Below, in pieces: positions 3,001 to 4,891 of a stretch of DNA of 4,891 bases. Location: IMG/VR virus record IMGVR_UViG_2531839622_000012; one strand, written 5' to 3'. The DNA comes from a virus. Lineage: Duplodnaviria > Heunggongvirae > Uroviricota > Caudoviricetes. Position 1 is the first letter of the stretch, and each line of letters starts with the position of its first letter. The position numbers were made by a program.

Positions 3001-4891
3001 ATTTTTGCGACATAGCGCTTGACTCCTTTTACAGAGAGGCGCTAACCTTCTACTTGCTTAAGGTACGAAGTGTTAGGGCCTCGGGTTAACGTTAAGTTGA
3101 CTCGGGGCCTTTCCACATCAGGCCTTCAGGTTCACCCTCCAGCCATCAGCCGAAAGGCACCCACGCATAATTTACGGTTTTTGCCCTGTACGGGCAATAA
3201 AAAACCCGCCATCACAGCGGGTAGTAAACGGTTACCGGATACAGGTCAGAATTTCAGGCCAATGCCAGCAGTAACGCCACTCGTGCGCCAGTCGCCAGAG
3301 CCGAAACCTTCGTAAGCCACATCCAGTGTAACACTCTCATTCAGGTTAAACTGTGCACCTGCAGCCCACGCAAGGGAGGTTTTTTTCGTGCTGTTGCTTT
3401 CAGAAAATCCGCCACTACTGTTAATATTGTCCTTAATTTTCAGGTCAGCGCTAACTTTAGCAACGCCCATCCCTGCCATCGCATATAAACTCATGTACTG
3501 ATTAACCCGCCATGAAGGCCCCGCTAACAGACTCCAGTAATTCGCCCTGATATCCGTTCTGGCAGAAGCTGCCGGATTCTTAATCTTCCTGGTATGATCG
3601 GCTGACTGCACATCAATAAATGTCTGTGAGTTAGTGAGAGAACGCGTCCATGTAAAAGAGGTGATAACGCCAAAATCATCCGTTATCTCGTAGCGATACC
3701 TGATATTAATGCCCTGTGGATTTTTATCCTTGCCTTCATATCCACTGACCCGACCATCTGTATATTCGCCCAATGAAGAAAAGTAGTTTCTGTTGACGAA
3801 ATGACTGAAAGTCTCCCTGTTATGAGCAGTCGCATCCTTTACAAAATCCTTCAGTCCCGGAAACTGAAAGTGCGCATACCCCAGAGAAATTGTATGGTTT
3901 CCTTCTGCTGCATGTGCAGATAAATTTACACAGGCAATCCCGGAGATTGCACACACAACCAGTGTTGCTATACTCTTCATTTAAGATATCCTGTATTCAG
4001 ATAACACGCTAAACTTTTTAATAATACATCTTTTTAGACATTTTAAATGAATATTAAAGACTCGCTTCAACTAATCATATACTGATGTATTAATAACCAA
4101 GACCTTATCTATATACGGCTTTCGAATATCCCATGTTGCACCGCCGGAATAATGCTCACAGGAATATATTTTATTTCCTGTAGCACCAGTGGATGTGGTA
4201 TAAATCGGTCGATCATAAGGAGTTCTTTTCCAGTTATAATACCCGACCAGTGCAGGCATGATTGCGCATGGATATCCAAGGTCCTTTTCAAATTTGATAT
4301 CAACAGGTATTAACTTCGCGTCAAGCAGCATCATTTCGCCATGATAAATCATCTCACCGTCCGGGTTATACATGGCGATACCATACTCAGAAGGTGGAGT
4401 AACCATATTCGCGAAAGCATAAACCGTCGTAACACCAGGGTTCGTTCCCCTGACAATTACATGAAGCCTTAGTGCATGATATCCATCAATCTGTTCATGC
4501 GTGTACATGACATCGGCCTTCTTCTCTGTTCTGATAAAGAAAAAACAACTTTTGCCTGACGGGATTGATGTTTTAAAAAAAGACTTTTCAGTCGCCGGTA
4601 TGGTGCCTTTGTTGATCAGACACTGCGGCGTAAAACCTGGACTTATCCATACGCTGCCATCCGGCTTCATAATGCTCAAACCATACATGACACTTATCCC
4701 CAGAATGTATAAATATAAGATCCCATACCCTGCTCAAGATTCGACCACGTCACCGTATTGCCATTAATGGTTATCTTCGGTACTTTCCGATCCGCAAATA
4801 CATTATTCCAGGGAAATAAACGTAAGCGTACAGCCTGAACCGTCTGGTCAGAATCTGACGAATTAGACAAAGTGGTGTCCACCAAATAAGT

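Follow-up and report, generated by a model that had tools for sequence, protein, structure and literature searches.

Introduction

The hok/sok (parB) locus of plasmid R1, a plasmid stability locus, is the reference for a family in which an antisense RNA of about 60 nucleotides (nt), Sok, is directed in cis against the leader of the mRNA of the toxin Hok (Pfam family PF01848), with the mRNA being inactivated by pairing of its tac and fbi elements and with the Shine–Dalgarno (SD) sequence of hok being sequestered. Sok is reportedly recognized through its single-stranded 5′ tail, a feature said to have been described by Thisted et al. in 1994. Here, we compare this architecture with that of a locus in a 4,891-nt stretch of DNA from a virus of the class Caudoviricetes (IMG/VR record IMGVR_UViG_2531839622_000012), referred to in its full length as the window, in which a preliminary description had pointed to positions 3019–3113 as a candidate Sok-like antisense RNA. 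The candidate RNA would be read from the plus strand, opposite a hok-like leader on the minus strand.

In R1, translation of mok through to the hok SD sequence is mandatory for the translation of hok, and Sok, which covers the mok SD sequence and AUG, blocks the initiation of mok translation (PMC9841398). A named type I toxin-antitoxin locus of the same family, hokW-mokW-sokW, has been studied experimentally in the Stx phages 933W and Sp5 (Takada et al. 2021, PMC8621323). There, hokW/sokW was shown to speed lysis and to double phage release, and destruction of the −10 element of sokW with primers YO-421/422 resulted in a "pro-less" construct that was toxic, its antitoxin activity having been lost (PMC8621323). 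A survey of Hok clusters, which by design covered the Hok coding sequence only and did not address Sok, Mok, or the mRNA ends, has catalogued and cloned a peptide identical to one encoded in the window (72_1589, Hok cluster 72) as well as its relative from a P2 prophage, 72_1621 (Escalera-Maurer et al., 2026 preprint, bioRxiv 10.1101/2025.08.07.668861).

A probable second hok/sok cassette in phages 933W and Sp5

The window is 100% identical to the Stx phages 933W and VT2-Sakai (Sp5) and to many of their relatives. We put at roughly 0.8 the probability that the flagged segment is the Sok-type cis-antisense antitoxin gene of a second type I cassette of the hok/sok family in 933W/Sp5, and the hairpin it contains (3077–3109, plus strand) very likely forms the terminator of a Sok-like antisense RNA, as its final stem-loop. 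The evidence that carries this reading comprises the sequence features of the segment, homology to hok/sok and to the sokW promoter, the architecture of the RNAs, a pattern of wobble pairs seen on both strands, conservation among homologues, and an mRNA that folds back on itself. Within its well-known family, the cassette is an ordinary case in which the leader frame happens to be broken. Both the family and its mechanism are textbook matter, and the toxin gene has already been annotated and catalogued.

The cassette sits between L0129 and lom, at 45.4–45.9 kb on the 933W map. Identity with the published hokW/sokW was considered and rejected: the primers and probes of Takada et al. (PMC8621323) are absent from the window, and in 933W hokW-mokW-sokW lies at 58.4–58.8 kb (GenBank AF125520, 58460–58734), near L0136–L0139 and about 13 kb away. 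The cassette of the window is therefore a paralogue, the second of its kind in this phage. In the original 933W record, nothing is annotated between L0129 and lom, while later records label the open reading frame (ORF) of 46 amino acids (aa) found there as "Hok/Gef family protein" (RefSeq) or "host toxic membrane protein". The phage and RefSeq records examined have no annotated RNA gene at the cassette, an absence that would be explained by the subfamily scoring under the Rfam threshold. Our searches found no publication or annotation of an antisense RNA at this cassette; T1TAdb may hold a prediction.

Side by side, the two cassettes of 933W have much in common beyond phage and family. The −10 hexamer of the sok promoter, TAACCT, is identical in both, and in both the −35 element overlaps the complement of the hok SD sequence. 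SokW, like the RNA predicted here, has a free 5′ tail, a terminal hairpin in which G-U pairs occur and CCUC...GGGG closes the stem, and a U tail of few bases; SokW ends in GGGGCUUUU, and the tail reads UUUC in the window. The hokW mRNA, like that of the window, starts with GGGUGC and ends with a complementary fbi. On the other hand, the Hok of the window has 46 aa versus 51 aa for HokW, the hairpin is 20 nt shorter than that of SokW, and the match to the Rfam family RF01794 reaches 35.6 bits as compared with 113.5 bits for hokW. Moreover, the window has no mok at the position that is covered by sokW in the other locus; instead, an AUG at +45 opens a frame of eight codons. The sokW RNA has been studied experimentally; the RNA of the window is predicted from sequence.

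Shared with R1 are a cis-antisense RNA of about 60 nt, here predicted, against the hok leader, the tac/fbi fold-back, a sequestered SD sequence, and a PF01848 toxin. In contrast to R1, the cassette is phage-borne, its leader is too diverged for the Rfam threshold, and the mok frame on which hok depends in R1 is absent or truncated.

The flagged hairpin is favored on the plus strand

In the hairpin, positions 3077–3090 (GGCCTCGGGTTAAC) pair with 3096–3109 (GTTGACTCGGGGCC) to form a 14-bp stem around the 5-nt loop GTTAA (3091–3095), and the stem is followed by TTTCC; the stem, loop, and trailing TTT of the preliminary description are thus present in the sequence. The predicted RNA would end in the short U-rich tail UUUC (3110–3113, plus strand), and CGGGGCCTTT is conserved among homologues. 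Exactly three of the pairs are G-U wobbles (3081/3105, 3084/3102, and 3087/3099), and each of them is replaced on the minus strand by a mismatch, C-A or A-C, in agreement with what had been noticed earlier. Folding of both strands confirmed the proposed preference for the plus strand, with energies of −23.8 kcal/mol for the plus-strand hairpin versus −10.9 kcal/mol for its minus-strand counterpart. For the whole 95-nt segment, the plus strand folds to −41.7 kcal/mol (z = −5.6, none of 200 shuffles being as good) and the minus strand to −23.5 kcal/mol (z = −1.5, 12 of 200 shuffles being as good). A palindrome that had been assigned to the loop does not lie there: TTAACGTTAA (3086–3095) consists of the top five bases of the stem together with the loop. 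As a possible site it was rejected, not being conserved among homologues.

Sequence variants were gathered from complete Escherichia coli genomes, from IMG/VR contigs, and from three other species; a wider pattern scan of contigs returned mostly chance matches, the relevant ones being confined to Salmonella enterica, Citrobacter braakii, and Escherichia albertii. The plus-strand hairpin was the more stable one in all 48 evaluable distinct variants, with mean energies of −20.8 versus −12.3 kcal/mol. When 28 sequences were aligned, standard pairs occupied 91.4% of the cells on the plus strand versus 75.8% on the minus strand, and G-U cells outnumbered A-C cells by 61 to 1. The pair 3084/3102 alternates between G-U and G-C, the pair 3087/3099 shows a double change from U-G to A-U in 12 sequences, and one lineage carries a compensated insertion of an A in the 5′ arm and a T in the 3′ arm (AAC/GTT to AAAC/GTTT).

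A helix of the hok mRNA close by displays the mirror image of this bias. This helix, which encloses the hok SD sequence and was identified by folding and variant comparison, pairs 3043–3039 with 3018–3014 on the minus strand (feature 3014–3043). All five of its minus-strand pairs are kept in 73 of 73 distinct variants, and 28 of these rely on a G-U pair whose plus-strand counterpart would be an A-C mismatch. Such opposite wobble biases are the pattern expected if structured RNAs come from both strands.

These observations bear on two other explanations of the hairpin. One is that it is a structure of the hok-mRNA leader only, formed on the minus strand, with no antisense RNA being made. RF01794 does model the hairpin on the hok-sense strand, and the fold of the full-length mRNA contains a weakened version of it. 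However, the minus-strand helix has the three C-A or A-C mismatches and attains just −10.9 kcal/mol, and the variants go from G-U to G-C or from U-G to A-U, never toward better pairing on the minus strand only (61 versus 1). The genuine hok-mRNA helix nearby is biased the opposite way, and a conserved promoter, with a −10 identical to the validated −10 of sokW, is found at the right distance upstream. We therefore regard a leader structure without an antisense RNA as quite improbable. Even harder to credit is the second explanation, by which the hairpin terminates a longer plus-strand transcript that has nothing to do with hok, or is a chance inverted repeat. Its GC-rich stem followed by T residues would suit a terminator, but all sizeable ORFs of the window are on the minus strand, so that there would be nothing to terminate; a chance repeat is difficult to reconcile with a z of −5.6 against shuffles, and the hairpin accompanies the hok cassette in four unrelated contexts (see below), which argues against either version.

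The candidate promoter and the predicted antisense RNA

The preliminary description had placed a −35-like element, TTGACT, over the complement of the toxin SD sequence. The hexamer is indeed present (3019–3024, plus strand) and overlaps the SD complement CTCCTT (3023–3028), although by merely 2 nt. Its placement with respect to this complement is the same as that of the sokW −35, TTGCCT, and homologues carry TTGCTC, TTGCCT, or TTGTCT at this position; the core CTTG is invariant in 16 aligned sequences derived from BLAST searches and is visible throughout the larger variant set. The candidate −10 hexamer, the TAACCT shared with sokW (3043–3048, plus strand), is invariant in the 16 BLAST-derived sequences, and likewise in a set of 57 distinct sok-region variants in which the results of BLAST and pattern searches were pooled. 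The two hexamers are separated by 18 nt in the window versus 17 nt in most homologues. In sokW, the layout of the promoter is TTGCCT-17-TAACCT-6-G(+1); in the window, G3056 is the eighth base past TAACCT.

On the basis of the RF01794 alignments and the ends of sokW in GenBank, we predict a Sok-like RNA of about 58 nt (57–62) that would extend from about 3056 to about 3113 on the plus strand. Its predicted 5′ end maps to G3056, in the loop of the target hairpin of the hok mRNA, with all positions from 3052 to 3057 being possible, and its 3′ end at about 3113 is placed by homology to the annotated end of SokW. The fold of this RNA (3057–3113) consists of a free 5′ tail and the terminal hairpin (z = −5.1). 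The tail, a putative recognition region of 18–21 nt (3056–3076, plus strand), is unpaired in both the minimum free energy (MFE) and the centroid structure, and is complementary to the loop and the 5′ arm of the target stem-loop. Mean column entropies amount to 0.85 for the tail and 1.3 for the loop of the hairpin, where most of the variation is found, versus 0.07 for the −10 hexamer and 0.12–0.31 for the stem base, both of which are constrained. The variability of the tail is consistent with a role as a specificity determinant among paralogues.

The hok mRNA and its toxin

RF01794 aligns with positions 3162–3000 of the minus strand over the full length of the model (1–157; E = 1.8 × 10^−5), and the flagged hairpin falls at the Sok-hairpin positions of this alignment. 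Relatives in the subfamily score 30–55 bits, and hokW is matched in the same orientation. The match defines the +1 of the window at about 3162, from which the hok-type toxin mRNA would extend over 355 nt to the end of fbi (3162–2808, minus strand), as delimited by RF01794, MFE folding, and the homology boundary. The hok-like ORF at 2873–3013 (minus strand) encodes 46 aa (MSQKSLITVTICMTVIFTIWMLHGSLCEFRLNLWGAEFAAFLQCKQ) and is preceded by the SD sequence AAGGAG at 3028–3023. Pfam HOK_GEF (PF01848) matches residues 8–44 of the 46 with 33.2 bits (cutoff 22, E = 4 × 10^−8), and the length of 46 codons is retained in nearly all divergent variants. Together, the RF01794 Sok-hairpin positions, the Pfam-positive Hok ORF, and the sokW-like promoter support the earlier proposal of a Sok-like antisense RNA opposite a hok-like leader. 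The identical peptide 72_1589 is not among the three constructs that were non-toxic in the cluster survey, none of which belongs to cluster 72 (bioRxiv 10.1101/2025.08.07.668861); by implication, it is toxic when expressed.

The ends of the mRNA are complementary to each other. The tac-like 5′ end, GGGUGCC (3162–3156, minus strand), pairs with the fbi-like GGCACCC (2814–2808, minus strand), and a second end helix joins CGGCUGA (3153–3147) to UCAGCCG (2825–2819). Both end helices are present in the MFE structure of the 355-nt mRNA as well as in the fold computed from an alignment of 73 distinct homologues. Of 86 distinct variants, 65 have the exact fbi sequence at an unchanged distance, and most of the others have forms bearing one mismatch.

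The putative target of the antisense RNA is a stem-loop at 3034–3081 (minus strand; MFE −15.7 kcal/mol, z = −2.9), which corresponds to the third hairpin of RF01794 and exposes the loop CCUUAAGCA (about 3063–3055). The loop lies opposite the predicted 5′ end of the Sok-like RNA, and within it CUUA and UUAA match YUNR, the U-turn motif, which contains little information and is weak evidence. Upstream of the mRNA, a candidate hok promoter at 3169–3197 (minus strand) comprises a −35 TTGCCC (3197–3192), a spacer of 17 nt, and a −10 TAAATT (3174–3169), with G3162 as the +1; T1, A2, and T6 of this −10 are retained in the BLAST-derived variants, and a strict consensus scan did not call the promoter.

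A side observation concerns RF01794 itself, which bears the name "sok antitoxin". The family hits the hokW leader on the hok-sense strand, opposite the strand of GenBank sokW in 933W (locus L019, 703–877, plus strand). The model is therefore written in the sense of the hok mRNA, from +1 to the hok AUG, so that strand calls made by the family label the toxin leader as the antitoxin.

Proposed mechanism

From these features, we infer a mode of repression that would resemble that of R1. A constitutive sigma-70 promoter (TTGACT 3019–3024, TAACCT 3043–3048), arranged back-to-back with the SD sequence and start codon of hok, would drive a plus-strand RNA of about 58 nt, consisting of an unstructured 5′ tail of 18–21 nt, the stem-loop with its G-U pairs (3077–3109), and a short U tail. 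The tail, whose complementarity to the loop and 5′ arm of the leader stem-loop is perfect, would start the pairing as in R1 hok/sok, and pairing could then spread into a duplex of about 58 bp over about +50 to about +107 of the leader, abutting the AUG at +45. The duplex would block the entry of ribosomes into the leader, become a substrate for RNase III, or both, and the 46-aa membrane toxin Hok (2873–3013, minus strand) would stay unexpressed. The full-length hok mRNA would be further locked by the pairing of its 5′ and 3′ ends and by the SD-enclosing helix. Loss of the unstable antisense RNA would then result in the release of Hok. Transcription of the RNA, its ends, the repression, and the route the repression takes are all predicted.

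The broken leader frame and other points against the antisense reading

Several findings weigh against the assignment of the segment as a Sok-type antitoxin gene. The literature, searched also for RNA-seq evidence from O157, yielded no report of a plus-strand transcript at the cassette. A strict consensus promoter scan does not call the sok promoter, the −10 matching at 3 of 6 positions, and the conservation of this −10 is confounded by the role that the same bases play in a stem of the hok mRNA. Neither does a consensus terminator scan call the hairpin an intrinsic terminator, because its U tract is just 3 nt long. The homology to RF01794 is significant, but its score of 35.6 bits is below the gathering score of 59. 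Covariation across homologues, which the preliminary description had put forward as a check, gave a divided result: the strand-directional wobble bias is clear, but double changes occur at two pairs only and are no better than in shuffles, the counts being modest because the homologues are close relatives.

Further findings of this kind concern the leader frame. No ATG, GTG, or TTG frame in the window runs across the hok SD sequence, and a mok frame that overlaps hok is therefore missing. The AUG at +45 (3118–3116), which has GAAGG upstream, opens the ORF MWKGPEST plus stop (3092–3118, minus strand). The stop of this ORF is a UAA inside the hairpin loop, and the ORF is probably a truncated equivalent of mok. 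With only eight codons in this equivalent, it is in doubt whether and by which route hok is translated, and with it what the antisense RNA would block. Constrained folding showed no clear Sok-dependent change, the SD sequence being unpaired with a probability of 0.11 versus 0.01, and offered no useful contrast because the hok SD sequence is already paired. The deviation in mok lowers the confidence in regulation by the R1 route, not that in the homology to hok/sok.

Among 73 variants, the AUG at +45 opens mok-like frames of 61–79 codons that overlap hok in 14 and frames of 1–29 codons in the remainder. The leader frame is decided by a difference of 1 nt in the length of the hairpin loop, GTTAA versus GTTAAA. 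The AUG itself is conserved in 15 of 16 BLAST-derived sequences, its conservation elsewhere being partly imposed by the search pattern, and it is situated immediately beyond the predicted duplex, on the side of its 3′ edge. Two readings fit this situation: hok may be independent of mok coupling in this subfamily, or it may go untranslated in many copies.

In line with the first of these, we tentatively consider that in this subfamily the start of the leader ORF may have been shifted to +45, where the Sok duplex has its 3′ edge, and that the leader ORF was afterwards given up to a large extent. If that were the case, the Sok-like RNA would control hok without mok coupling, for instance by way of cleavage by RNase III or with the help of a leader ORF of very few codons, and the cassette would be a regulatory variant of the hok/sok paradigm. 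The broken frame provides a natural experiment on the universality of mok coupling within the family.

The second reading, which we think somewhat less probable still, sees in the cassette a decaying or translationally silent copy: a Sok-like RNA may be made, but with a mok equivalent of eight codons hok could not be translated, and there would be no toxin in cis to neutralize. At most, the antisense RNA would then act on the mRNAs of paralogous hok genes, or it would have no function. Such silence would be expected from the requirement of R1 hok for mok translation up to the hok SD sequence (PMC9841398), given that the +45 frame ends after eight codons and that no other ATG, GTG, or TTG frame passes over the SD sequence. 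The stops in the leader frame are scattered among the variants, as would be expected without selection, the SD sequence is predicted to be mostly paired whether the antisense RNA is present or not, and there are up to nine copies of the subfamily per E. coli genome. Yet nearly all divergent variants retain the 46 codons of hok, although about 80% have a broken overlapping frame, which points to selection on hok; the promoter, tac, fbi, and the SD helix are all intact; and the identical peptide is, by implication, toxic when expressed (bioRxiv 10.1101/2025.08.07.668861). An action in trans on paralogues is unlikely, the 5′ tail being among the most variable segments. We continue to favor a Sok-type antitoxin gene that acts in cis on the hok mRNA of the same cassette.

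Phages 933W and Sp5 are Stx phages of medical importance, and a second cassette that looks intact was not considered in the work on hokW/sokW, in which its presence could mask or modify the phenotype. It could, for instance, be responsible for the merely partial phenotype of the hokW-sokW deletion in Sp5 lysis and phage release. Apart from the mok anomaly and this possible confounding, the cassette is one more expected member of a system that has been studied thoroughly.

Distribution and surroundings of the cassette

Cassettes of the subfamily occur in 1750 of 5426 complete E. coli genomes, or about a third, and in up to nine places per genome. Their contexts are of four unrelated kinds: Stx phages carry the cassette between L0129 and lom, P2-like prophages have it at their end, just downstream of ogr, lambdoid prophages have it in the gap between J and a tail fiber gene, and in EDL933 it is found next to ykgM. 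Across these contexts, the homology ends directly past the fbi box, as expected of a self-contained hok cassette, and this boundary suggests a mobile, moron-like unit. The Salmonella hokST/sokST locus was considered as a characterized relative and rejected, since it is borne by the plasmid pCol1B9 and is unrelated to the contexts of the subfamily.

In some prophages, the cassette is present twice in tandem, with a few hundred bases between the copies and with differing 5′ tails (locus L012, at about 1–224 and 409–700; also L070 and L150). In E. coli A39, a remnant of the leader/sok region without a hok ORF is found by gpJ (locus L016, 495–627; 30.5 bits with Rfam), where it abuts a truncated gene for an integrase core of an insertion sequence (IS). 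This remnant looks like a sok region that has been orphaned by an insertion or a deletion.

In the window, lom is immediately trailed by a strong terminator-like hairpin (3204–3222, minus strand), which is followed by the candidate hok promoter, and the hok cassette appears to be transcriptionally insulated from lom. At the other end, a 3′ hairpin of the hok mRNA (2841–2864, GACGGGGAC...GUCCCCGUC) resembles an intrinsic terminator on the plus strand only, TTTT coming next on that strand; antisense or convergent transcription that enters the cassette from the side of L0129 may be stopped by this hairpin. Beyond it, within the 133-aa ORF L0129 (2415–2816, minus strand), a GC-rich inverted repeat of 10 bp at 2690–2713 is flanked by T runs on either side, such that it is terminator-like in both directions, and it also gives weak Rfam matches to BSnc120 and GlmZ.

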